Part shown: positions 1 to 51,237 of the stretch, piece by piece
Layout of the letters: each line of letters begins with the position of its first letter
Numbering within the stretch: position 1 is the stretch's first letter
Source: Candidatus Gottesmanbacteria bacterium RIFCSPLOWO2_01_FULL_43_11b
Lineage (GTDB): Bacteria; Patescibacteriota; Microgenomatia; UBA10105; UBA927
Direction: 5' to 3'
Assembly (NCBI GenBank): GCA_001780985.1
Contig: MFJV01000001.1
Coordinates: forward strand, 158,980 to 222,979
DNA length: 64,000 nt
Program-made: the position numbers and the translations under genes
The notes under the pieces: generated by a model
The model's database searches: none
Seen by the model: the letters and a program-made list of their open reading frames with translations, nothing else
Told to the model about the DNA's origin: nothing

Positions 1-1276
<1,276 letters not shown>

Positions 1277-1280
<4 letters not shown>

Positions 1281-1540
1281 TGCATGTTTTTTGATATTTC
1301 AGCCAGTTTACCTGCTGCCGCTTTTTGACTCGCTTTAATTGCGTCATTAAACGCTTGTTTGAGTGCTTCGTTTGCTACACCGTCAACCTCAACTGTCTTG
1401 ACGTTTTGATTTCCTGTTATAACTAATCGGACATTGCCTTGGATTACCTCAAATTCTTCCTGTTCCAGTGCAGCCTGAATTTGTGCCGCTTGCTTACGCA
1501 TCTGATTCACATCCCCTAACATCTTAAATGGATTCATCAT
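1277..1540 (-). CDS. ybaB: nucleoid-associated protein YbaB/EbfC family
   Basis: 87-aa ORF directly downstream of dnaX (the classic dnaX-ybaB arrangement). N-terminal MLGDVNQMRKQAAQIQ pattern. Confidence 0.8.
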
Positions 1541-6124: not shown

Positions 6125-7594
6125 TCAATACGCTTGGGCGAAAAGCCAGCGGTGGGTAGCGGGTTTGCCGCAGTGAACACACGTTCCCTTTTCTTCTTTC
6201 GGCACCTGCCTGCCGGCAGGCAGGTCTAAGGGTAAACAACGGTTTGAAGCTTTGGTTTCTGCTTTAATTTTTGTTTCGCACGAGGCATCCTCACACCAAA
6301 ATGCGGAAATAAATCCCCGCTCCCCCGCCATAATCTTTTTAAAATGATCATACGATTCTACCGTATGTGTATGATCCAGAGTAAATTTCTTGTGAGTTTC
6401 CAATAAATTTTGTTGTATCGTCTCTAACATGCCAGAAATTTCATCGATACTAACTTTCTTTTTTTGCATTGTATCGCGAGCAACAGCAGTAACTATTCCT
6501 TCTTCCGCTTCCTTATCACCAATCTCAAGTCGGATCGGCACACCCCGGACCTCCCATTTATTAAATTTAAAGCCTGCACTTTCCCCATCTTTATCATCGC
6601 ATTTGACGCGAATCCCTATTTTTTTCAGCGCCTCTCTTTGTGCTATTGCATATTTTATGGTTTTAGGGCTCGATCCAGGAATAGGAATAAGGATCACCTG
6701 AATAGGTGCGATATTTGGAGGCATAATGAGCCCTTGATCGTCTCCGTGCGCCATGATGAGCCCGCCGATACTTCTTGTGGAGAATCCCCAACTGTTTTGC
6801 CACGGATAGAGCGGCTGTCCTTTTTCATCCTGCACAGTCCAATGAAATGCTTTTGCAAAATTTTGACCTAAATCGTGTGACGTACAACCTTGAAGCGCCT
6901 TACCATCCGGCATCAACATTTCAAAGGTATACGTTTTCTTAGCACCGGCAAATTTTTCCGATTCGCTCTTAACACCTGCAACACCGTAGAGAGCGAGAAG
7001 ATTCTGGTACGTCTCTTTGTACATATCGAGTGCCCAACGAACCTCGGAAACCGACTCTTTGTGAGTATTATGAGCGCAGTGTCCTTCCTGCCACAGAAAT
7101 TCACTCGTTCGTAAAAAGAGATACGTTCGCTTCTCCCATCGAACAATGTTATTCCATTGATTGATGCGGATTGGCAAATCTCTGTAGCTTTGAGTCCAAC
7201 GTTTGTACATTTCATACATAATCGTTTCACTGGTCGGCCGCACCACTAAGCGTTCTTTGAGTTCTTCTCCGCCAGCAAAAGTCACCACAGCCATATGAGG
7301 AGCAAATCCCTCTACGTGTTCTTTTTCAAGATTAAGGAATTTTTCCGGTATAAAGAGAGGAAAATACGCATTCTCCACTTTATGAGCTTTAATAAGTGGA
7401 TCCATGTAGTGTTGAATTCCTTCCCATAGCGCGAATCCATACGGACGAATAACCATACACCCCTTTATCGGCGCGTAATCGGCAAGTTGGGCTTTCAAAA
7501 TAACGTCTGTATACCAATCCGATAGATTGTCGCTTTTTTTCTTGAGCTCTTTCTTTTCAAATTGCTTTTGCATATTAGTAAAGTTTTCCTCCAA
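6125..7594 (-). CDS. proS: proline--tRNA ligase (archaeal/eukaryote-like type, C-terminal zinc module ending in Y)
   Basis: 489 aa with class II aaRS motifs. The C-terminus CVHCGKPATHRWLFAQAY is typical of this ProRS type. Contains the DLPAGRQ palindrome insert. Confidence 0.92.
   Translation of the reverse strand: MEENFTNMQKQFEKKELKKKSDNLSDWYTDVILKAQLADYAPIKGCMVIRPYGFALWEGIQHYMDPLIKAHKVENAYFPLFIPEKFLNLEKEHVEGFAPHMAVVTFAGGEELKERLVVRPTSETIMYEMYKRWTQSYRDLPIRINQWNNIVRWEKRTYLFLRTSEFLWQEGHCAHNTHKESVSEVRWALDMYKETYQNLLALYGVAGVKSESEKFAGAKKTYTFEMLMPDGKALQGCTSHDLGQNFAKAFHWTVQDEKGQPLYPWQNSWGFSTRSIGGLIMAHGDDQGLIMPPNIAPIQVILIPIPGSSPKTIKYAIAQREALKKIGIRVKCDDKDGESAGFKFNKWEVRGVPIRLEIGDKEAEEGIVTAVARDTMQKKKVSIDEISGMLETIQQNLLETHKKFTLDHTHTVESYDHFKKIMAGERGFISAFWCEDASCETKIKAETKASNRCLPLDLPAGRQVPKEEKGTCVHCGKPATHRWLFAQAY
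6204..6225. repeat. 22-bp perfect palindrome acctgcctgccggcaggcaggt (copy 1, inside proS)
   Basis: Read directly from the sequence. It is self-complementary, and the same core occurs at 24939 and 37006. Confidence 0.95.
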
Positions 7595-17568: not shown

Positions 17569-17611
17569 GAAGAGGTTAGGTTCTTTAAAAGAGGGCGGAA
17601 ATTGGAAAATT

Positions 17612-17755
17612 TAAAGCGTGTGGACCAGCCCCTCGCGAGGAGCTGGTATACGAGGAAGGGGAAAATCGAATAGCCCGCCAGTCGGCGGATAAATCTGCGG
17701 ATACCCCTTGGTAGCGCTCTCTACCACAACAATAGACAGAAATGACTATTGAGGA
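17612..17755 (+). promoter_or_regulatory. glmS ribozyme/riboswitch
   Basis: aA|GCG cleavage-site context at 17615/17616. P1 hairpin gaccagc..gctggt. Conserved core strings ACGAGGA and AUCGAA..UCGGCGGAU. Sits directly upstream of glmS. Confidence 0.75.
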
Positions 17756-17778
17756 GCCCGTCTCTCTTTCTAAACTTC

Positions 17779-19551
17779 ATGTGTGGAATATTTGGCTACG
17801 TTGGTCCTAGCCCTCATGGTGCAAAGATAGTTCTTGAAGGTCTCAAACGACTTGAATATCGCGGTTACGATAGTTGGGGAGTTGCTGTTGTACCTGCTTC
17901 AAAGGGTAAAATTGTCGTAAAGAAAAAAGCCGGAAGAATAGGCAAAGCTAGTGTTTCTGATATGCCAAAAGGGTCTGTTGCGTTCGGGCATACCCGCTGG
18001 GCAACCCATGGAGGAGTTACCGATGTTAATGCACACCCTCACCTTGACTGCACAGGAAATCTTGCTGTCATTCACAATGGTATTTTTGAAAACTATGAGA
18101 GTATAAAGCAGGATCTTATTAAAAAAGGGCACCGTTTTATCTCCCAAACAGATACCGAAGTTATCGCCCACCTCATTGAAGAATATGCAAAGACCATGAT
18201 GTTAAGTAAGGCAGTGCAACGGGCGTATAACGAAATGGAAGGTCTTAACGCATTCATAGTTATCCAGACAAAAGAACACCTCCTCCTTGGGGTAAGAAAT
18301 GGGTCACCCTTAGTCGTCGGATTCGGAGATCCGGAAAATTATTTGGCAAGTGATGCTGCAGCGCTCATTCCCCATACCCGGCAGGTTCATTTTCTTGAAG
18401 ATGATCAAATGGTAATTGTTGGAACTGATCAGGTAAACATATTTAACGCAAGAACCGGTGAACGCATTCGTCCGCTTAAACAGAAACTTACCTGGTCAGC
18501 AGAGCAGGCAGAAAAAGGAAAATTCCCTTATTTCATGCTGAAAGAAATTTATGAACAGCCCGGGCTTATTTCAGAAATTGCCGGAGAATCAACGATCCAA
18601 GCCAAAAAAATTGCGGAGGTTCTTAAAAACGCACATGGCGCCTATATCGTTGGCTGCGGAACTGCCGGATATGCTGCTCTTGCTGCTCAATATCTCTTTT
18701 CAGCCATATCAAACAGACACGTTAACTCTGTTATTGGCAGCGAATTTGGCTACCTCCAAAATTTTCTCGTGAAAAGAAGTGCCGTACTTGCCCTTTCACA
18801 ATCCGGCGAAACCATGGATATTCTTGAGGGAGTCAAGAAAGCCAAAGACAAAGGTGCAAAAATTGTTTCTTTGGTTAATGTCGTCGGATCCTCGCTTTGG
18901 CGGTTATCAGATGTAAGACTCCCAATTGGTGTAGGGCCGGAGAAAGGGGTCGCATCTACCAAAGCATTCATCGGGAAACTTACCCATCTCATACTTCTCT
19001 CTTACGCAATGATAGGCAAAATTACCAAGGGTCAGCGGATACTCACGCGGGCTGCAAAAGCAGCAACCGAGGTTCTCAAAGAGCAGCGGGTGAGTAAAAT
19101 AATGAAACTTGCAAAAAAACTCAAAAATACGGAACATATTTTTGTTATCGGGAGAGGGCTTTCATATCCTGCGGCGCTTGAAACAGCGCTAAAAATTAAG
19201 GAAATTTCCTATATCCATGCCGAGGGCTTGGCCGCAGGGGAACTCAAACACGGCCCACTTGCGCTTGTGACGAAAGGCATTCCCTGCATCGTATTTGCAC
19301 CCAACGATGAAACACAGGGAGCAAATCTTGCGGGAGCCATGGAAATGAAAGCACGAGGTGCGTATATTATCGGGATCTCACCCAAAAAGCATGAGGTTTT
19401 TGATTATTATCTGCCGGTTAAAGACGTGGGAGAGGCAACAATTATTCCCAATGTCATCGTTGCCCAGCTTCTGGCGTACTATTTAGCAATAGAGCGCGGC
19501 TTCGACCCCGATATGCCGAGGAATCTAGCAAAAAGTGTAACAGTAAAATGA
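17779..19551 (+). CDS. glmS: glutamine--fructose-6-phosphate aminotransferase
   Basis: Starts MCGIFGY (Ntn Cys) at ATG 17779, contains two SIS domains, and ends ..AKSVTVK. Confidence 0.93.
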   Translation: MCGIFGYVGPSPHGAKIVLEGLKRLEYRGYDSWGVAVVPASKGKIVVKKKAGRIGKASVSDMPKGSVAFGHTRWATHGGVTDVNAHPHLDCTGNLAVIHNGIFENYESIKQDLIKKGHRFISQTDTEVIAHLIEEYAKTMMLSKAVQRAYNEMEGLNAFIVIQTKEHLLLGVRNGSPLVVGFGDPENYLASDAAALIPHTRQVHFLEDDQMVIVGTDQVNIFNARTGERIRPLKQKLTWSAEQAEKGKFPYFMLKEIYEQPGLISEIAGESTIQAKKIAEVLKNAHGAYIVGCGTAGYAALAAQYLFSAISNRHVNSVIGSEFGYLQNFLVKRSAVLALSQSGETMDILEGVKKAKDKGAKIVSLVNVVGSSLWRLSDVRLPIGVGPEKGVASTKAFIGKLTHLILLSYAMIGKITKGQRILTRAAKAATEVLKEQRVSKIMKLAKKLKNTEHIFVIGRGLSYPAALETALKIKEISYIHAEGLAAGELKHGPLALVTKGIPCIVFAPNDETQGANLAGAMEMKARGAYIIGISPKKHEVFDYYLPVKDVGEATIIPNVIVAQLLAYYLAIERGFDPDMPRNLAKSVTVK

Positions 19552-24938: not shown

Positions 24939-24958
24939 CCTGCCTGCCGGCAGGCAGG
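24939..24958. repeat. 20-bp perfect palindrome cctgcctgccggcaggcagg (copy 2, disrupting the msrB 5' region)
   Basis: Read directly from the sequence. Removing exactly these 20 nt joins KGTEPP to [17 protein letters not shown] in one frame. Confidence 0.95.
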
Positions 24959-25266: not shown

Positions 25267-26853
25267 CTAAAGGTAACCACCGTCTCTCAGGTGTGTTTCT
25301 ATATCTTTCTCAGAAAACCCTATTTTTTGGGCTATTTTATCCGCATGACTGGAAGTCGAAATACCAGGAACCAATTTAAAGGTTGGGTGATCACCATCAA
25401 ACTCCACTTGTAGGAACTGTCCTTTCTCTTCTTCTTTGAAATCATAAACCAATTCATGGTTATGGGTAACCAAAACAGTAGTGCCACCTTTTTTCTCGAA
25501 ACCATTCAAAACTGCCTGTGAGACCTGCATTTTCTCCTCTCTTGTTGTTCCTTCTGCCAACTCGTCCAGAACAACTAAACTTTTTGACCCGATAGAAAAA
25601 AAGATGTCGCGGGTTCTTGAAAGTTCGGTCCCAAACCGTCCTTCAGAATCTTCCAGAGCATCAAATTTCGGAGCTTGGTAAGCAATCTTTGTAGCCACAT
25701 TAATGACAGCGTTTTTTGCCAAAATGTCGCATCCTATTTGAGCCATAAGCTGACTCTGCACCACAGTTTTGCAGATTGTGGTTTTACCGCCACTATTTGG
25801 GCCTGTCACAAAGATAAGACCACGTAAGTCTACGGCATTTGGAACAAAATTTTCATCCTCCTTACCTAAAACAGGATTTCTTAGATCTTCAGCCTTAAAA
25901 GAATGACTGTTGTTATCTGTAATTTTGGGCGTAACCGTTGAGCTGGCCGCGGTTTTTGAGAACTCGAGGAAAGAGTTTAATTCATCTACTTTGCCGACTA
26001 CATCAACAGCCTGCAAAAATATTTGATTTTTTTGAGCAAGTTCATTTAAAGGCTGAATAAACGTTCGAAGATCAATTGTTGGTTTGACCCGATTTGCCAT
26101 CATTCCAAACATTGGCAGATATAAATTAATGATAAGGTAAAGGTCCATTTTATCGTCAAAAATGCTTAGTACTTCCTTTTGTTTAAATCCGGTAAACGCT
26201 GAGATTGCAAAAAATCCAAATGGGATCATCGGAATGATTGTTGAAGGACCGAAGCTCGTTGGCCAAAATCTTCTTTTTAGAGTCCAAAATCGAACCTCCT
26301 CTTTTGATTTTAATCCCTGTCTTGTTTTATAGATTGGACCTCTCATGAGCTGATAGACCGAAGACTTTTCGTAACTCTTAATAACGTCGGCTAAATTTTT
26401 AAGATACGCAGATTCAGGTTTTGGGATAACTCTGGATATTTCTTTTAAGTCTGAGGCTGCTTTTGTCGCCAGTTTAAAATCTTTATACGGGAACATCGTA
26501 TCCAAATCGTCATTGATAAATTTAAGAAAAGAATCTTCGAGAGCCTTAAAATTTTCAAGATAATCAATAATTGGTTTTCTGATCCGGTCGTTATTTCTAA
26601 GCTCTGCAACTGCTTCCTGCTTTGCCTGCACCACATTAATATCCTGGGGTGGGTGGGTTAAAGACCGATACAGAGTCAATGAACCCAAAGAAGTTATCGT
26701 GTGGTTCAGAGACTCATGCAAGTCATCTACCTGAATGAGTCGAAGTGATTCGCGGTCAGTGACCCCATCTTCGAGTTCATCAAGTAAGTCGTTGTGAATT
26801 ATTTGTAAAAGAGGTTTCTCACCTCTTGCGGTAAATCTGAGATGCTCAACCAT
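25267..26853 (-). CDS. MutS-related ATPase (domain V only) with central hydrophobic helices
   Basis: Walker A GPNSGGKTT, and LVVLDELAEGTT followed by TH (MutS domain V). No mismatch-binding domain. There are two hydrophobic segments near residues 220-290. Start chosen at ATG 26853. Confidence 0.75.
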   Translation of the reverse strand: MVEHLRFTARGEKPLLQIIHNDLLDELEDGVTDRESLRLIQVDDLHESLNHTITSLGSLTLYRSLTHPPQDINVVQAKQEAVAELRNNDRIRKPIIDYLENFKALEDSFLKFINDDLDTMFPYKDFKLATKAASDLKEISRVIPKPESAYLKNLADVIKSYEKSSVYQLMRGPIYKTRQGLKSKEEVRFWTLKRRFWPTSFGPSTIIPMIPFGFFAISAFTGFKQKEVLSIFDDKMDLYLIINLYLPMFGMMANRVKPTIDLRTFIQPLNELAQKNQIFLQAVDVVGKVDELNSFLEFSKTAASSTVTPKITDNNSHSFKAEDLRNPVLGKEDENFVPNAVDLRGLIFVTGPNSGGKTTICKTVVQSQLMAQIGCDILAKNAVINVATKIAYQAPKFDALEDSEGRFGTELSRTRDIFFSIGSKSLVVLDELAEGTTREEKMQVSQAVLNGFEKKGGTTVLVTHNHELVYDFKEEEKGQFLQVEFDGDHPTFKLVPGISTSSHADKIAQKIGFSEKDIETHLRDGGYL

Positions 26854-27053
26854 AGCGACTGGGGCATTATAGCAGGTCTTTTGCCTTTTGCAAAAAATCG
26901 GTCGGGGCGCCGAATTGGTAGCGGATTGCGATCCACGCCACCCCCGCAATAAGAGCAATGAGCAGGATTACCAAAAGTGTGAGAGGAAATTTCATCTACT
27001 CGTACAATAGCGGGAAGTAATGACACGTGCAGTTCGATGGAGCACAAAGTGTG

Positions 27054-27252
27054 TGGGTGATCCAGGGATCGAACCTGGGACCTCGTTCTTATATCACCCG
27101 AGTGATATTTCACGCAAAATGATAATGTGGGTGCGCATGGAATCGAACCATGTGCCTCTTTCTTATCAGGAAAGCGTTCTACCAGTGAACTACGCACCCT
27201 TCTTCATTTTGCGTGAACGCAGGAACGCGCTCTACCACTGAGCCAATCACCC
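27054..27252 (-). tRNA. interrupted tRNA gene with a 127-nt insert in the anticodon loop (anticodon GCG/Arg if joined at 36/37; identity uncertain)
   Basis: Exon 1 (27252..27218) is gggtgat tg gctc agtggta gagc g cgttc ctgcg. Exon 2 (27090..27054) is aa gaacg aggtc ccagg ttcgatc cctgg atcaccc a. The acceptor, anticodon and T stems are all perfect once the insert is removed. Confidence 0.6.
27128..27199 (-). tRNA. tRNA-Ile (anticodon GAU), nested inside the interrupted tRNA
   Basis: Hand-folded 72-nt cloverleaf: gggtgcg ta gttc actggta gaac g ctttc cuGAUaa gaaag aggca catgg ttcgatt ccatg cgcaccc a. Confidence 0.85.
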
Positions 27253-27267
27253 TTTAAAACAAATTTG

Positions 27268-27339
27268 AGGTGCGGAGGGGAATCGAACCCCTGTGTTGCG
27301 GTTTTGCAGACCGCCGCGTTACCTCTTCGCCACCGCACC
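27268..27339 (-). tRNA. tRNA-Cys (anticodon GCA)
   Basis: ggtgcgg..gcggt cuGCAaa accgc..agggg ttcgatt cccct ccgcacc u. The U73 discriminator is typical of Cys. Confidence 0.85.
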
Positions 27340-27390
27340 AATATGACCAATTGTACCAGATACAAAAAATCCCCTCAACGAGGGGTATTG

Positions 27391-27702
27391 CTAGGATTGA
27401 TTGAAGACTTCTTGAGGAATTTTCTCTATTTCAAAAACAATTGCACCTTTAGGTAGAATGCATTTTGGTGTAACTCCTGCTTCTTTCGTCAGTTCATTAT
27501 TTTCTGCCACTAATCCAGCGGGACCACCGACTGTAACCGCCGAAAGAATTCCCTCTTTATATTTCAACGCTCTCAAAGCACGCATCGTATCAGCGGTTTG
27601 ATCGACAATATAAGAAAGGCTGACGTCGGTACCTCGATGAGATACCCAAACATGACCTTCAATTTCAATATTCCCTCCGCTTGTTAAATGCGCGCGTGGC
27701 AT
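27391..27702 (-). CDS. hypothetical protein between the 16S rRNA and the tRNA genes
   Basis: 103-aa ORF with no motif recognised. Confidence 0.45.
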   Translation of the reverse strand: MPRAHLTSGGNIEIEGHVWVSHRGTDVSLSYIVDQTADTMRALRALKYKEGILSAVTVGGPAGLVAENNELTKEAGVTPKCILPKGAIVFEIEKIPQEVFNQS

Positions 27703-27966
27703 AGAGGTGTTAGTGTAGCAGGATTTCTTTTCTTTGACAATCGAATGGTGACAGGAAGAAATTGAGAGTTGTCACTCAACCATCTTTTATACACTAAAAG
27801 ACGATTTGCTCGAGAGTGACTTTGTCCCGCTCTCAGCGGGACGGATAATCAATCTCATCTTGAATTCCTCGCTCCGATTAGATCGGAGTGTAAATTCTCA
27901 ATGACACTGATTTTATAAATAGAAAGGAGGTGATCCATCCCCAGCTTCGGCTAGGGATACCTTGTT

Positions 27967-28663
27967 CATGTTTATTCCCGGTTTTCACCGGGGCATGGAC
28001 TATATCTTCATCCGCAAAAATTGACGTTTTTCTGGATGAACCGAACCAATTATTTTTGCAAAATCGTTGTAAGACCTTGCCGAAATATAAAATCTCCAAT
28101 AATTCGGATCAACCGTTTTACTAGGATTATGAATTACTCCACAATGAATACTTAATTCTTCTAAATAGTGTTTTACTTGTAAAAGATCTTGCTTGTCCTT
28201 TTGACAAAAATACAAGTAATACCTCACCGAAGAATTTTTAGCAATACCACCTTCTGCATCGAAATAACCTCGGATATATTCGATTTTGTCGTTCTTAGAA
28301 CGTATTTCAATATCTCGTAAAATCTTTTTCGGAAATTCTACTATCCAAAGATTACGAGACTTTCCTTCTTTATATATCCAAGCTCCAACATGTAATTTAC
28401 GAATTCCTATTTTTAGAAACTGCGCAAATTCTCTACTGTTAGTTGCTATTCGATAGGTAGATTGCCGACTGGTACCATCGTGAGCCATTCCCAATAAATA
28501 TGGTTTCGTCATATGCGGCGCCAACGTGTAGTCTCTACGGAGTCCCCGATATAATCAGGGTTCCCTCGGTATTCCCATATGTTGATTATAAACCAAGCAT
28601 GAAGGGTTCACCGATACAGTTGGATTTTCCCATACCCTTACGGATATGGGTCGCAACAAACTT
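27967..28663 (-). mobile_element. group I intron (697 nt) in the 16S 3' region (inside the 1492R primer site), carrying a homing endonuclease ORF
   Basis: It splits AAGTCGT|AACAAGG. The 5' exon ends in U and the intron ends in G. Core strings AGAGACUACACG (28525..28536) and GAUAUAGUCC (27997..28006) flank the ORF. Confidence 0.8.
28000..28524 (-). CDS. LAGLIDADG homing endonuclease (intron-encoded)
   Basis: 174 aa with two LAGLIDADG-like motifs (YLLGMAHDGT and YIRGYFDAEGG). The TAG stop lies inside the intron core element GAUAUAGUCC. Confidence 0.82.
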   Translation of the reverse strand: MAPHMTKPYLLGMAHDGTSRQSTYRIATNSREFAQFLKIGIRKLHVGAWIYKEGKSRNLWIVEFPKKILRDIEIRSKNDKIEYIRGYFDAEGGIAKNSSVRYYLYFCQKDKQDLLQVKHYLEELSIHCGVIHNPSKTVDPNYWRFYISARSYNDFAKIIGSVHPEKRQFLRMKI

Positions 28664-29056
28664 ACGACTTAGTCCCCATCGCTGAGTTCGGCTTCGACCG
28701 TAAAAACGGCCTTCAGCCGCCCCCAACTTTGTTGGCTTGACGGGCGGTGTGTACAAGACCCGAGAACGTATTCACCGCAGCCTTCTGATCTGCGATTACT
28801 ACCGATTCCGACTTCATGAGGGCGGGTTGCAGCCCTCAATCTGAACTGAGGCGAAATTTCAGGGATTTGCTTGCCATTACTAGTTTGCATCCCATTGTTT
28901 TTCGCCATTGTAGGGTGTGTGTTACCCAGGGTATAAGCGCCGTGCTGACTTGACGTCGTCCGTTCCTTCCTCCCCGATACATATCGGGGCAGTCTCCGAT
29001 GACACTTATAACATCGGATACGGGTTGCGCTCGTTCTCCTACTTAAAGGAACACCC

Positions 29057-29087
<31 letters not shown>

Positions 29088-29202
29088 GCTGTGATACCAT
29101 CCTTGCGGATAGCCTACTATTTCTAGCGGGTTAAAACGGTACCATGTCAAACCCTGGTAAGGTTTTTCGCTTTGTCTCGAATTGAACCACACGCTCCACC
29201 GG

Positions 29203-29234
<32 letters not shown>

Positions 29235-29625
29235 TAATCTTGCGATCGTACTCCCCAGGCGGTCTGCTTAACGCGTTAGCTTACGTCAGTCCCCCTTGCG
29301 GCGGACCAACTAGCAGACATGCGTTTAGGGCTAGGACTACGCAGGTCTCTAATCTGCTTCGCTCCCCTAGCTTTCGTGTCTCAGCGTTAGGTGTGGGCCA
29401 GAAAGGTGCCTTCGCCTTTGGTGTTCCTCATGATATCAACGCATTTCACTGCTTCACCATGAGTTCCCCTTTCCTCTCCCATCCTCAAAGACTCCCCATC
29501 TCGAACCCAACGCCGAGGTTAAGCCTCGGGCTTTCAGGTTCGATGCGGAAATCCGCCTACACGACACTTTACGCCCAGTGAATCCGGATAACGCTTGCAC
29601 CCTACGTATTACCGCGACTGCTGGC

Positions 29626-29880
29626 CCGCCACAATTTTTTGTAGCGAACTTTGGACTATATCATCACCCCACAGATTGGGGGTCTCGCGTGTAGTCTCTG
29701 AGGACTCTCCCCGCCATCCTTTCATTATAAATGAAGGCGGAGGTTGCCTGCTGATTGTCTTGATACATGCTTGCTTTCGCAAAACTATTTCGCGGACATA
29801 TCAAGGTGTTCCAGCATATAGCGAGATTTTCTTTTACCGTATTACTACAGTAACTACGCACCATCCGATTACATCGAATC
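29626..29880 (-). mobile_element. ORF-less group I intron (255 nt) in the 16S 515-region
   Basis: It splits AACTACGT|GCCAGCAG. It has the same AGAGACUACACG (29688..29699) and GAUAUAGUCC (29653..29662) core strings as the other intron, with a short P8-like hairpin between them. It starts after U and ends in G. Confidence 0.75.
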
Positions 29881-30286
29881 ACGTAGTTTGTAGGTGCTTA
29901 TTCGCCAAACCTCGATGATCTGGCAAAAGAGGTTTACATACCGAAATACTTCATCCCTCACGCGGCGTCGCTCGGTCAGGCTTTCGCCCATTGCCGAATA
30001 TTCCTAGTTGCTGCCATCCGTAGATGTATAGCCCGTGTCTCAGTGCTATTGTGGGGGGTCGCGCTCTCACGCCCCCTACCCGTCATCGCCTTGGTAGGCC
30101 ATTACCCCACCAACAAGCTGATAGGAGCAAGGCCGCTCTTCCTCCGTGCCGTTACGCACTTTGATCTTACGACCTCATGGAATATTACCCCGTCTTTCGA
30201 CGAGCTATGTTCCAGAAAAAGGTACGTTCCTTGCTTATACTCACCCGTCCGCCACTAATCTTTCGACCGTTCAACTTGCATGCCTA

Positions 30287-30329
<43 letters not shown>

Positions 30330-30470
30330 AAAAAAAATTAACGTCCCGGATATCATGATTCGCTTACGCTCATCACCATCCGGGTCCGGCTGATGTCGCA
30401 ACGCGACATAATAGCCGGATTCCTATCACCATTCGTTTGTCAAATGTTAATGTGCGACTCTCAATGAGCG

Positions 30471-36520: not shown

Positions 36521-38524
36521 TTATTTTATATCTTCTTTCTTCCATGCTGCAAATGTGCAGTTGGGGTAGTTTGAACAACCGTAAAATGTTTTGCCGCGGC
36601 GGGTCTTTTTAATCACAATATCTCCCCCATCCCTCGGGCATTTCATATCAATTTTTTCTGCAAATTGGCGCGTATATTTGCACGCTGGAAAGTTACTGCA
36701 GGCGATAAATTTCCCGTATCTTCCCACACGCAAAACGAGCTGATGACCGCAGTCCGGGCACTTTTCATCAAGTAATTCAACCGGCGTTTTTACTTTTTCT
36801 GCCTGATCGAAAGCTGCGTCAAGCTCTTTGGCAAAAGGCGTATAAAAATCTCTTATTACAGGCACCCACTCTACTTGCCCGTCGGCAATAGCGTCTAAGT
36901 TATCCTCCATAGTTGCGGTAAAGGGGATATCAATAATATTCGGAAAATATTTTATTAGGAAATCGTTGACCAAAAAGCCCAATTCAGTTGGTTTCAACTT
37001 TTTTCCCTGCCTGCCGGCAGGCAGGTCTTCCCGCACTATGTACTGGCGTTCCTGAATTGTTGAAATAACCGGCGCATAGGTAGAAGGGCGTCCGATCCCT
37101 TTTTCCTCAAGCGTTTTAATTAGCGAAGCCTCATTGTAGCGAGGGGGTGGATTTGTAAAATGTTGTTCTGGTATGGCTTGGTTAAATCCTATTTCTTGCC
37201 CCTGTGTAACCTCGGGAAGAACAACTTCCCCGTTATCTTTTCCGAGAATTTTCAAAAACCCCTCAAATTTTATAACCGATCCCTGGGCTTCAAAAAGATA
37301 CGTATTGCTACTTGTAATTTTTATCGTTGTGGAATCAAAAATCGCTTCAGCTGCCTGGCTTGCGAGCGCCCGTATCCAAATAAGCTCATAGAGTCTGATA
37401 TGGTCACGGTTAAGTTCTGCGCTGTCGATCGTAAGCTGAGCGCCTTGTACAGTTGCATCTGTGGGTCTAATTGCTTCGTGAGCCTCCTGGGCTGATTTTG
37501 ATTTTGTTTTGTATCGACGCGCCTCTGCCGGTACATACTCTTTGCCGTATTCTTTTTCTATATAATCCCGCGCTTCACTAATAAATTTCTCAGACAGGTT
37601 AAAACTGTCGGTTCTGTGGTAGCTTATCAAACCCTCTTCGTAGAGTTTTTGAGCAAGTTGCATTGTGCGTTTCGCAGAAAAGTATAATCTTCGGCCCGCA
37701 TCCTGCTGGAGTGTGCTTGTCGTATAGGGAGGGGCCGGAAACCGTCTCACTTCTTTTTTGTCTACTGAAGAGACGATATAGGGTGATTTTAAATCTTTGA
37801 TTATGGTATCTGCTGCGTTTTGGTCAGTTATTGTCGAGGAAGCCGTAGTATATTTTCCGTCAAAAAGATCAAATTCAAGATTTTTTTCATACAAAACACC
37901 CTCTTTGGAAACCAGGTGTGCATGAATTTCCCCGAATACCCCTTCAATTGTCCAGAACTCTTCTTTTTGAAATTTTTCTATTTCTCTTTCCCGCTCAACG
38001 ATAAACCGTACGGCGACTGATTGAACCCTTCCTGCTGAAAGCCAACGGCGGGAAAGTTTCTGCCAAAGGAGTGGGGACAATTTGTATCCAACAAGTCGAT
38101 CTAATATCCTTCTAGCCTGCTGCGCGTTTACGAGTTTTTGGTCAATTTCACGCGGATGCGTTAGCGCTTCGGCAATCGCGTGTTCCGTTATCTCATGGAA
38201 TACTATTCGAGTAAACTTCGACTTTTTTAGTGTGTCCGCAACGTGCCAGGCAATTGCCTCTCCCTCCCGATCCGGGTCGGTTGCAAGAATAATCGAATCT
38301 GCCTTCTTTGCTGCGTCTTTGAGTTCTTTGGCGCGCTTTGCTTTCGCACGCGGGGTGACATATCTGGGGGTAAAGTCATGATCGACATCAACCCCGAGTT
38401 CGGATTTCGGCAAATCACGAATATGCCCCATCGATGCTTCAATTCGATAATCTTTACCGAGAAATCTCGACAGAGTTTTAGCTTTTGTTGGTGATTCAAC
38501 AATAATGAGATGATAATTTTTCAT
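36521..38524 (-). CDS. topA: DNA topoisomerase I
   Basis: Toprim start LIIVESPTKAKT, active-site region SYHRTDS, and two C-terminal zinc ribbons. Contains the DLPAGRQ palindrome insert. Confidence 0.93.
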   Translation of the reverse strand: MKNYHLIIVESPTKAKTLSRFLGKDYRIEASMGHIRDLPKSELGVDVDHDFTPRYVTPRAKAKRAKELKDAAKKADSIILATDPDREGEAIAWHVADTLKKSKFTRIVFHEITEHAIAEALTHPREIDQKLVNAQQARRILDRLVGYKLSPLLWQKLSRRWLSAGRVQSVAVRFIVEREREIEKFQKEEFWTIEGVFGEIHAHLVSKEGVLYEKNLEFDLFDGKYTTASSTITDQNAADTIIKDLKSPYIVSSVDKKEVRRFPAPPYTTSTLQQDAGRRLYFSAKRTMQLAQKLYEEGLISYHRTDSFNLSEKFISEARDYIEKEYGKEYVPAEARRYKTKSKSAQEAHEAIRPTDATVQGAQLTIDSAELNRDHIRLYELIWIRALASQAAEAIFDSTTIKITSSNTYLFEAQGSVIKFEGFLKILGKDNGEVVLPEVTQGQEIGFNQAIPEQHFTNPPPRYNEASLIKTLEEKGIGRPSTYAPVISTIQERQYIVREDLPAGRQGKKLKPTELGFLVNDFLIKYFPNIIDIPFTATMEDNLDAIADGQVEWVPVIRDFYTPFAKELDAAFDQAEKVKTPVELLDEKCPDCGHQLVLRVGRYGKFIACSNFPACKYTRQFAEKIDMKCPRDGGDIVIKKTRRGKTFYGCSNYPNCTFAAWKKEDIK
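37006..37025. repeat. 20-bp perfect palindrome cctgcctgccggcaggcagg (copy 3, inside topA)
   Basis: Read directly from the sequence. Translated in-frame as DLPAGRQ, the same frame as in proS. Confidence 0.95.
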
Positions 38525-50403: not shown

Positions 50404-51237
50404 ATGACCATTATTTTTTTCGGCTCATTTCAAAAGTACTCGGTTCAGGTTTTAGAAAAACTTACCAATAATTTTTCCGTTACTGCTGTTATTACTACAC
50501 CCCCAAAACCTGCTGGGCGACACATGGAACTTAAACCAACTGAGGTTGCTCTGTATGCGCGGTCCAACAAACTTCCACTTTATGAACTTTATGAACTTTC
50601 TACTATTCCCGACATTCCTCGTCCTGATTTTATCGTTGTTGCTGGTTACGGCAGGCTTATTCCTCCGCTTTGGCTCGAATTTCCCAAAATTATGGCAGTC
50701 AATATGCACCCGTCGCTCTTGCCGCAATACCGCGGCGCATTCCCTGCTGAATGGGCAATACTCAATATGGAAAAAGAAACAGGGGTAACTCTCGTTAAAA
50801 TGTCTGCGGAATTTGATAAAGGGGACATCATTGCTCAAAAAAAATTTGTAATTGAACCGAGCGATACCCGCGAAACGCTCTATAAAAAACTTTATGATAT
50901 GGGAGCAAAGCTTTTGGTCGATACGTTACCTGCCAAAATTACTCCCCGTCCTCAAGCAAGCGGTGATTTTTTCTACGCGCGAAGGCTCACAAGAGACGAC
51001 GGCTTTGTGCCGTGGGAAGAATTTACGAAGGATATCTCTAAACTTGAAAGGAAACTGCGCGCGCTAACCCCATGGCCCGGCGTTTGGACCCGCCTGCCAG
51101 CGCCTGAGCGCAGCGATGGCGGGCAGGCCAAAACCCCACAGGGAAAAAGGCTAAAACTCCTCTCTCTTAATCCTCCAACTGTTCAGCTTGAAGGCAAAAA
51201 GCCTTCCCTCTTGACAGACCTATCACACTTATCCTAG
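50404..51237 (+). CDS. fmt: methionyl-tRNA formyltransferase
   Basis: def-fmt gene order. N-terminal formyltransferase domain with NMHPSLLPQYRG. Confidence 0.88.
   Translation: MTIIFFGSFQKYSVQVLEKLTNNFSVTAVITTPPKPAGRHMELKPTEVALYARSNKLPLYELYELSTIPDIPRPDFIVVAGYGRLIPPLWLEFPKIMAVNMHPSLLPQYRGAFPAEWAILNMEKETGVTLVKMSAEFDKGDIIAQKKFVIEPSDTRETLYKKLYDMGAKLLVDTLPAKITPRPQASGDFFYARRLTRDDGFVPWEEFTKDISKLERKLRALTPWPGVWTRLPAPERSDGGQAKTPQGKRLKLLSLNPPTVQLEGKKPSLLTDLSHLS

Follow-up and report, generated by a model that had tools for sequence, protein, structure and literature searches.

A tRNA-Ile(GAU) gene nested in the split anticodon of a second tRNA-Ile(GAU) gene in a Candidatus Gottesmanbacteria genome, probably a broken tRNA gene and its replacement

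We analysed a 64,000-nucleotide stretch of the genome of Candidatus Gottesmanbacteria bacterium RIFCSPLOWO2_01_FULL_43_11b, a tiny groundwater bacterium of the Patescibacteria within the Candidate Phyla Radiation (GCA_001780985.1, contig MFJV01000001.1, positions 158,980 to 222,979; hereafter the window), in which a tRNA gene on the minus strand (27054..27252) is interrupted inside its anticodon by a 127-nt insert that itself carries a complete tRNA gene. Both the outer, interrupted gene and the inner one read as tRNA-Ile(GAU). The arrangement is probably the result of a DNA insertion that broke the resident tRNA-Ile(GAU) gene and supplied its replacement in the same step, leaving the outer halves as relics; the inner tRNA is presumed to be the working gene. 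Seen this way, the nested arrangement looks like a way of exchanging an essential tRNA gene and not like a new type of splicing.

The break in the outer gene falls between G34 and A35, and all the parts described here lie on the minus strand. Its 5' part (positions 1-34, GGGTGATTGGCTCAGTGGTAGAGCGCGTTCCTG, 27220..27252) ends with the anticodon base G34, its 3' part (positions 35-73, ATAAGAACGAGGTCCCAGGTTCGATCCCTGGATCACCCA) occupies 27054..27092, and the insert, or cassette, lies between them at 27093..27219. Read in the direction of the genes, the insert consists of CG, a 14-nt repeat arm in the leader of the inner tRNA (TTCACGCAAAATGA, 27204..27217), AGAA, the complete 72-nt inner tRNA-Ile(GAU) (27128..27199; found by ARAGORN and scoring 67.9 bits with the Rfam tRNA model), CATTA, a second 14-nt arm in the inner-tRNA trailer (TCATTTTGCGTGAA, 27109..27122) and 16 nt of an 18-nt hairpin (ATATCAC-TCGG-GTGATAT, 27091..27108), which is seen in the sequence and in predicted folds. 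This hairpin spans the 3' junction, its final two bases being A35 and U36 of the outer anticodon, and it holds a second copy of GGGTGAT, which in the outer tRNA is the 5' strand of the acceptor stem. The two arms form a perfect 14-bp inverted repeat that stops 2 nt short of the left junction and 16 nt short of the right one, and 55 nt of the insert lie outside the inner tRNA, which has 21 of 21 stem pairs intact, a discriminator A and no encoded CCA. Within the 64-kb window there is no second copy of either the 18-nt hairpin or the 14-bp repeat. The repeat forms a helix in both the minimum-energy and the centroid fold, and the 207-nt region has a folding energy of -76.9 kcal/mol versus -55.9 +/- 4.4 kcal/mol for shuffled sequences (z = -4.8; 0 of 200 shuffles as good).

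Judged by its sequence, the outer gene is a tRNA-Ile(GAU) and not a tRNA-Arg(GCG), because its halves resemble the inner tRNA, the joined halves equal intact tRNA-Ile genes, and ARAGORN in intron mode makes the same call. The repeat finder gave 80% identity to the inner tRNA for the 5' half and 76% for the 3' half, with the similarity extending to ...CCTG on the 5' side and resuming at ATAAGAA... on the 3' side. Overall, the outer and inner alleles are identical at 55 of 72 positions, and their stem differences are all compensatory, so that both molecules keep 21 of 21 pairs. Once joined, the outer halves match the intact tRNA-Ile genes of L173, L191 and L200 at 72/72 positions (L numbers denote metagenome loci or contigs compared with the window), and this allele scores 69.9 bits with the Rfam tRNA model. 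Against this intact allele (CCTG/ATAAG, with a slash at the break) the insert boundaries are unambiguous. Neither junction restores a tRNA, and no target-site duplication is present, the insert beginning with CG and finishing with AT between the flanks CCTG and ATAAG. An earlier reading of the sequence (the first-pass annotation) had described the two halves, the 14-bp stem, the inner tRNA-Ile(GAU) and the 18-nt hairpin, and all of them are present on the minus strand where it placed them. Its insert length of 127 nt also stands, while the boundaries it gave, 27091..27217, have to be moved to 27093..27219, as both the intact allele and ARAGORN indicate. Likewise, the anticodon GCG (Arg) that it derived by joining at 36/37 is wrong, since the outer halves equal intact tRNA-Ile genes, and the alternative it mentioned, GAU (Ile) by joining after position 34, is the right one. 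It had also proposed an intron-permissive tRNA search, which had a divided outcome: in intron mode ARAGORN misses the outer gene as long as the inner tRNA is unshuffled, and returns tRNA-Ile(gat) with a 127-nt intron (tcctg-Intron-ataag) when the inner tRNA is shuffled. Standard ARAGORN and Rfam runs detect only the inner tRNA and an upstream tRNA-Cys at the locus. ARAGORN finds no other tRNA-Ile(GAU) in the window, which covers 64 kb of a contig of ~1.02 Mb.

The locus is real and not an assembly chimera, because identical sequence occurs in independent assemblies from other samples, five in all. L004 (ERZ4903072) and L209 (ERZ27254763) are identical to the window over all 400 nt compared, and L210 (JGI Ga0209542), L211 and L212 are identical and cover the 5' part including the 5' junction. 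The first-pass annotation had named a chimera as something to check, and one could picture an assembly or binning artefact that joined two strains with different tRNA-Ile alleles, the more so as several short contigs of the same species (L210-L213) stop in or near the nest. However, the full locus is identical in three assemblies of different samples and the 5' junction in three more, a chimera would join halves and would not make unique flanks with a 14-bp repeat, and at least ten further nests occur in unrelated assemblies, so that we give an artefact practically no chance.

We scanned JGI metagenomes for the outer 3' half from A35 onward and obtained at least 120 loci. Among them, L173 has the order 16S ... 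tRNA-Cys, tRNA-Ile as in the window, and by this comparison it is an empty site, because its gene order matches and its tRNA-Ile is intact. The inner tRNA is in turn 72/72 identical to a stand-alone gene in L120, while in two other nests the inner tRNA of L183 equals the L166 allele and that of L104 equals the L175 allele; going by these identities, inner alleles match the resident alleles of other lineages. This bears on the idea that the gene was duplicated locally in tandem and deletions then reduced the array to a 5' fragment, one full copy and a truncated one (GGGTGAT + AT + positions 37-73), with neither an insertion nor mobile DNA involved. Such a history would account for the second GGGTGAT immediately 5' of the 3' half, and tandem tRNA-Ile fragments do occur in L091, L103 and L146. 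Yet it needs two independent deletions that leave exactly complementary halves (1-34 and 35-73), and an inner allele at 55/72 identity to the outer one that is the resident allele of another lineage is not what it would give. Because the inner allele differs from the outer and equals that of another lineage, import is favoured, and we consider a local origin improbable. A scan of viral contigs with the tRNA 3'-half pattern gave only one unrelated phage tRNA array.

The window does not stand alone. By reading the loci and screening them with profiles of the two tRNA halves, we found at least ten further nests of a tRNA-Ile within a tRNA-Ile (L104, L122, L145, L147, L159, L177, L182, L183, L192 and L097, the last being the same as L154); as nests can match the 3'-half pattern twice, 11 out of at least 120 loci (with L097 and L154 counted separately) is not a frequency. 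In all nests but L145 it is the anticodon that is broken; in L145 the D arm of the outer gene holds the inner tRNA. Among the matches listed, the inner tRNA of every nest is co-oriented with the outer gene and enclosed by a helix; the flanking repeat arms are 8-14 bp in the nests measured, and the predicted folds of the nest units are alike. Across ~105 tRNA-Ile genes among those matches, a perfect flanking inverted repeat of at least 12 bp occurs only around nested inner tRNAs, with at most 8 bp around the others. The inserts are ~110-170 nt long in all 11 nests, have no trace of element genes and fall into at least four families unrelated in sequence. Family A comprises L183, L192, L147 and L104 (CTGAT/GACAAG..TTGACATATAAAA...AATTTTCT/ATAAG), family B comprises L159 and L122, which have a hairpin and an ATTGAGA motif in common, family C is the window insert alone, and family D comprises L177, L182 and L097 (CTGA/CCCGCCTGCC...GGCGGGCAGG/TAAG, with the junction at 35/36). 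In the families other than that of the window, the junctions have an AT(A) ambiguity of 2-3 nt.

Some of these loci are more complex. L104 is doubly nested (1040-1400, minus strand): two 5' halves of one allele come in a row, a different small insert behind each, and then one complete tRNA-Ile and a single 3' half; its outermost 5' half has a perfect GC-rich hairpin in the D loop. Stray 5' or 3' tRNA-Ile fragments are present in L091, L103, L146, L101, L129 and L157. In L091 (600-900) and L103 (150-450), both on the minus strand, 5' fragments (positions 1-21) lie upstream of a complete gene and are followed by the motif AGCTTGG(C/T)CA, which recurs upstream of the L192 nest and, in L147 and L183, within 26-28-nt D-loop inserts of the decayed outer genes; these fragments may represent a second recurrent junction type. 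L177 (2850-3420, minus strand) has a tRNA-Cys followed by the orphan 3' half of a second tRNA-Cys, and its 16S sequence is among the closest to that of the window among the matches listed. After the 16S part, L177 has an Rfam match to a group II intron domain (1298-1848, 45.9 bits) with a LAGLIDADG_1 open reading frame (ORF); a recent survey described complete Patescibacteria genomes as being without group II introns.

Which copy decays was assessed by stem scoring on six nests (the window, L159, L183, L192, L147 and L122). The inner stems are 21/21 in all six. The outer stems are 21/21 in the window and L159, 20/21 in L122, 19/21 in L183 and L192 and 17/21 in L147. The outer copies of L183, L147, L122 and L177 are interrupted further, in the D loop, in the T loop or at 26/27, with an extra 66 nt at position 26/27 in L177. 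By reading, the outer copies of L177 and L182 have lost conserved D-loop or T-loop bases, and that of L097 has mutated loops or heavier decay; the enclosing helix is kept in all nests with decayed outer copies. Death of the outer gene at insertion, with decay afterwards, would be expected to produce such a pattern, in which case the window would represent a recent event. In the T loop of the inner tRNA-Ile, L145 (2990-3062) and L147 (426-498) read TCCGA (C55) where TTCGA is near-universal, so these inner copies may themselves be decaying, or the clade may tolerate C55.

The same data weigh on whether the nest could be a functional split or interrupted tRNA, in which the inner tRNA is released and the outer halves are ligated (e.g., by RtcB) or work as two pieces. 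The outer cloverleaf of the window is perfect and equal to functional alleles, that of L159 is nearly so, all nests fold with a closed outer acceptor stem and a long helix, and the helix is preserved via compensatory changes, all of which would suit such a role. However, the insert contains no bulge-helix-bulge motif, group I or group II core or known ribozyme; it follows G34 and ends in T, where a group I intron would have a U before it and a G as its last base; and excision of the inner tRNA leaves 20 and 35 extra nt on the halves. We know of no bacterial pathway that removes such 20- and 35-nt extras from tRNA halves. With the break inside the anticodon, an unligated two-piece molecule presumably could not decode, which would hold equally for pieces left unjoined after RNase III cuts the helix, as in rRNA intervening sequences, and the outer copies have stem mismatches, mostly together with inserts, in L183, L192, L147 and L122 and loop mutations or decay in L177, L182 and L097. 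We therefore hold a functional split tRNA to be very improbable, and it is just as hard to credit, for the young nests of the window and L159, a two-for-one device in which RtcB-like ligation would amount to protein-dependent bacterial tRNA splicing with a tRNA as the intron. The first-pass annotation had offered two readings. The first, functional halves like those of Nanoarchaeum, fares badly given the missing splicing motif, the 20 and 35 nt left over and the outer copies that are not conserved in relatives; the second, an outer gene inactivated by a hairpin element carrying a tRNA, agrees with the intact allele in L173, L191 and L200 and the decaying outer copies elsewhere. Its statement that the insert is too short for a group I intron and has no core is likewise borne out, there being no Rfam intron match in the insert at E <= 10.

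Family A bears on how cassettes are gained. The L183, L192 and L147 inserts of this family are homologous to one another (85% column identity), L104 has their motifs, and they occupy different outer alleles, with T arms that differ by compensatory changes. A type IV coupling-protein-like gene is a conserved neighbour of tRNA-Ile in at least 24 loci, nested or un-nested; its product is 700-800 aa long with TrwB_AAD_bind, DUF87 and TraG-D_C domains (L104 1622-3856, L192 6207-8624, L145 402-2531 and at least 21 others). We rejected this gene as a sign of a conjugative element, as it adjoins un-nested tRNA-Ile too, and used it as a phylogenetic marker instead. In the resulting tree the nearest relatives of the nested loci are un-nested: L178 for L192 (88.8% aa identity), L175 for L183 (81.3%) and L135 for L104. 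The sequences thus indicate that family A cassettes were acquired horizontally, repeatedly and independently, because they lie on three separate branches, each beside un-nested relatives; this would take three or more gains, the alternative being a large number of precise losses from decayed genes, which is implausible. Of the four differences between L192 and the L178 allele, three lie close together at the 5' junction, consistent with co-transfer of sequence from a donor.

These acquisitions also bear on whether each nest could be the remnant of a large element, perhaps a prophage or an integrative plasmid, that entered the anticodon loop with its own tRNA-Ile in the manner of tRNA-dependent lysogeny and has since lost all but the tRNA by deletion. 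There is a precedent for the first step in tRNA-dependent lysogeny (PMC10865867), orphan 3' halves in L101, L129 and L157 adjoin long foreign-looking DNA, and the extra tRNA fragments of L091, L103, L146 and L177 resemble leftovers of repeated integrations. But all 11 nest inserts are ~110-170 nt long and lack element genes, homologous inserts with the same ends are found in three separately acquired loci, and a symmetric perfect 14-bp repeat round the tRNA is not expected from random deletions. Because homologous small inserts with the same ends occur at three separately acquired loci, the small unit itself would appear to spread, and we regard a deleted large element as unlikely, though it is the least remote of the alternatives. 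The orphan 3' halves themselves (L101 151-189, L129 756-794, L157 11233-11271) are of one tRNA-Ile allele and begin exactly at the anticodon loop, and no tRNA lies upstream of them in the readable stretch (from ~750 nt in L129 to 4.7 kb in L101). The DNA adjoining the L101 half encodes an HTH_36/DnaD_N protein that resembles a replication initiator, which suggests an integrated element there.

For family D, the ends form an imperfect inverted repeat that is also present elsewhere without cargo. A 39-nt relative with these ends (CCCGCCTGCC-19 nt-GGCGGGCAGG) occurs once in the window (51089-51127), and 36-nt versions lie in loops of the decayed outer genes of L122 and L097. A 20-nt perfect palindrome (CCTGCCTGCCGGCAGGCAGG) occurs three times in the window versus 0 expected (6205-6224, 24939-24958 and 37006-37025), the copy at 37006 falling in an intact topoisomerase I reading frame (36521-38524).

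Several observations weigh against replacement by a mobile cassette. The flanks of the window insert have no second copy in the window or the at least 120 loci, where BLAST gave chance matches only, and a hypothetical circle junction of the insert, searched by BLAST against the same sequences, likewise gave chance matches only. The insert has no target-site duplication, and there is no integrase or transposase among the scanned ORFs adjoining the window nest or the other nests. A second tRNA-Ile(GAU) was sought in 64 kb of the ~1.02-Mb contig only. The outer copy of the window has no decay, with four perfect stems and a sequence equal to functional alleles, and continued selection on these halves would look the same as a recent insertion. 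The enclosing helix differs between L183 and L192 at 5 of 12 pairs, all compensated, a pattern that fits an RNA helix or co-varying terminal repeats equally well and may indicate a role at the RNA level. The same may be true of the GGGTGAT hairpin at the 3' junction, for which the replacement of the outer gene offers no explanation.

The immediate surroundings of the nest suggest how it might be expressed. A tRNA-Cys(GCA) gene (27267..27339, minus strand; ARAGORN and Rfam) lies 14 nt upstream of the outer tRNA. Just upstream of it, on the same strand, is a promoter-like site (TTGAGG-17-TACAAT, 27350..27378; a consensus match), which overlaps a terminator-like hairpin (27371..27385, minus strand; a consensus match only) 3' of a small gene, ORF103. 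Because the promoter-like site precedes tRNA-Cys and a consensus scan finds none in the insert, tRNA-Cys and the nest probably form one transcript with tRNA-Cys as its first gene. The same Cys-Ile neighbourhood occurs in L173, L120, L088 and L177.

On the reading that we favour, a 127-bp piece of DNA would have split the resident tRNA-Ile(GAU) gene while carrying a complete second tRNA-Ile(GAU) of another allele type. A single RNA transcribed from the promoter-like site would comprise tRNA-Cys, the inner tRNA and, on either side of the latter, the outer 5' and 3' halves; in it the 14-bp helix may clamp the ends of the inner tRNA and prevent mispairing with the outer halves, which are 76-80% similar to it. 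RNase P, 3' processing and CCA addition would then free the inner tRNA as the reader of AUY (AUU/AUC) isoleucine codons. The outer halves would not be rejoined and would persist as relics, in the window too young for decay. With the resident copy broken, the cassette tRNA would become indispensable and the insertion could not be lost. As to how cassettes spread, one candidate is homologous recombination after DNA uptake, in which the conserved 33-nt and 39-nt halves of the tRNA would act as homology arms, and another is a recombinase or other enzyme acting in trans on the inverted repeats.

We compared the insert with known classes of elements and rejected several identities. A permissive search of 26500..28700 found no Rfam family but tRNA in the insert even at E <= 10; RF00028 matched only in a 16S intron (27976..28174), with none in 27093..27219. 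A group I intron was rejected as there is no catalytic core (P3-P9), the boundary bases are wrong and the insert is 127 nt, 72 of them the inner tRNA, versus the ~200 nt needed. A group II intron was rejected on sequence, with no Rfam match in the insert, and a bulge-helix-bulge intron was rejected as inspection of the sequence and predicted folds did not find the motif. Such a motif has two 3-nt bulges, where the cuts are made, on either side of a 4-bp helix, whereas the one 4-bp pairing close to both junctions (UCAC/GUGA) would have 6- and 5-nt loops and be in competition with the 14-bp helix. A tmRNA was rejected (a weak permuted-tmRNA match at E = 2.7, no G3-U70, full D and anticodon arms), as were an integron cassette (no GTTRRRY core) and an IS200/IS605-type element, which had been considered from the TTGAT/ junctions in L192 and L145 (end hairpins absent).

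Disrupted tRNA genes are familiar from archaea, which have bulge-helix-bulge introns, the split tRNAs of Nanoarchaeum and a box C/D RNA within a tRNA-Trp intron, and they need the bulge-helix-bulge motif, a splicing endonuclease and a ligase. As in the nest, the break is in or near the anticodon loop, a helix joins the halves and in one case a functional RNA is nested; in contrast to these motif-dependent systems, the host here is a bacterium, there is no motif and the outer gene decays in relatives. Miniature inverted-repeat elements and bacterial palindromic repeats (e.g., REP and the Rickettsia palindromic elements) are similarly small with terminal or near-terminal inverted repeats, and the ends of family D are a dispersed palindromic repeat, whereas the window insert has no second copy in the window or the at least 120 loci and no target duplication. 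To our knowledge, no miniature element has been described with a tRNA gene as cargo inserted in its own isoacceptor. We found no description of a tRNA nested within a tRNA in open-access papers and preprints, which agrees with the first-pass annotation, where no bacterial case was known. Functionally, the closest known system appears to be the tRNA-dependent lysogeny of actinobacteriophages (Guerrero-Bustamante & Hatfull 2024, PMC10865867), which the nest resembles in miniature. In both, foreign DNA enters an essential single-copy host tRNA gene and the gene is not rebuilt (PMC10865867). There, however, a whole phage integrates with a tyrosine integrase, attP and a ~10-bp common core, and the phage tRNA lies elsewhere in the prophage (PMC10865867); the window insert is 127 nt with the tRNA as its sole gene and no nearby integrase or shared core, and its replacement would be co-transcribed from inside the anticodon. 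Group I introns within patescibacterial tRNA genes (Nakagawa et al. 2026, PMC13011429) share the phylum, the anticodon-loop site and the fact of being missed by standard annotation, but they are self-splicing ribozymes of 200+ nt (PMC13011429), while the window insert has no core and is mostly tRNA. Finally, the model for Caldiarchaeum in which mobile elements disrupt tRNA genes (Sugahara et al. 2012, PMC3293823) is akin to the nest in placing mobile DNA in tRNA genes, and unlike it in being archaeal, with 1.8-kb recombinase-encoding DNA, genes that are still spliced and no nested tRNA (PMC3293823).

In its wider setting, the nest lies downstream of a 16S rRNA gene in the order 16S, orphan ORF103, tRNA-Cys, nest. 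The insert has no ORF, and the neighbours of the window nest are ORF103 (no family) and a MutS-like protein, with no adjoining integrase or transposase. The 16S gene (27920-30335, minus strand) has two group I introns, the first at ~29629-29879 (Rfam, 57 bits) and the second at ~27967-28661, carrying a LAGLIDADG gene (28000-28524). The Rfam full-length 16S match ends at 28616, and the true 3' end with the anti-Shine-Dalgarno sequence lies near 27920; no 23S gene comes after it. ORF103 (27391-27702, minus strand) has no homologue outside its own species among 5.8 billion proteins and no Pfam family, and its matches within the species led to further assemblies of the locus. The MutS-like protein (25267-26958, minus strand) has domains III and V only, and its nearest relatives outside the species are at most 56% identical. 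Its homologues are scattered over Desulfobacterota, Methylococcales, Nitrosospira and archaeal bins, a patchy distribution that suggests horizontal transfer; the contig scan gave no Gottesmanbacteria homologue and matched only Desulfobacterota, Methylococcales and archaea, and no tRNA lies upstream of its two closest homologues (L086 and L087). Elsewhere in the window, a glmS ribozyme (17604-17761, Rfam 43.7 bits) lies directly upstream of a 600-aa ORF (17749-19551). When the window proteins were searched against the at least 120 loci by tblastn, the LAGLIDADG intron protein was the sole match.

The above analyses suggest that an essential single-copy tRNA gene in a minimal genome could be exchanged for a foreign allele while never being absent, as the new copy arrives inside the old one. 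The nests would add a bacterial case that does not involve introns to the known disrupted tRNA genes, and they support the old notion of mobile DNA as the driver of tRNA gene disruption, of which intermediate stages (fresh, decaying, doubly nested) can be seen. Relic halves of this kind are invisible to standard annotation and could mark horizontal tRNA replacement in the Candidate Phyla Radiation. If it is true that the cassettes spread by recombination via the tRNA halves, they would constitute a minimal, self-sufficient mobile unit with no protein gene.

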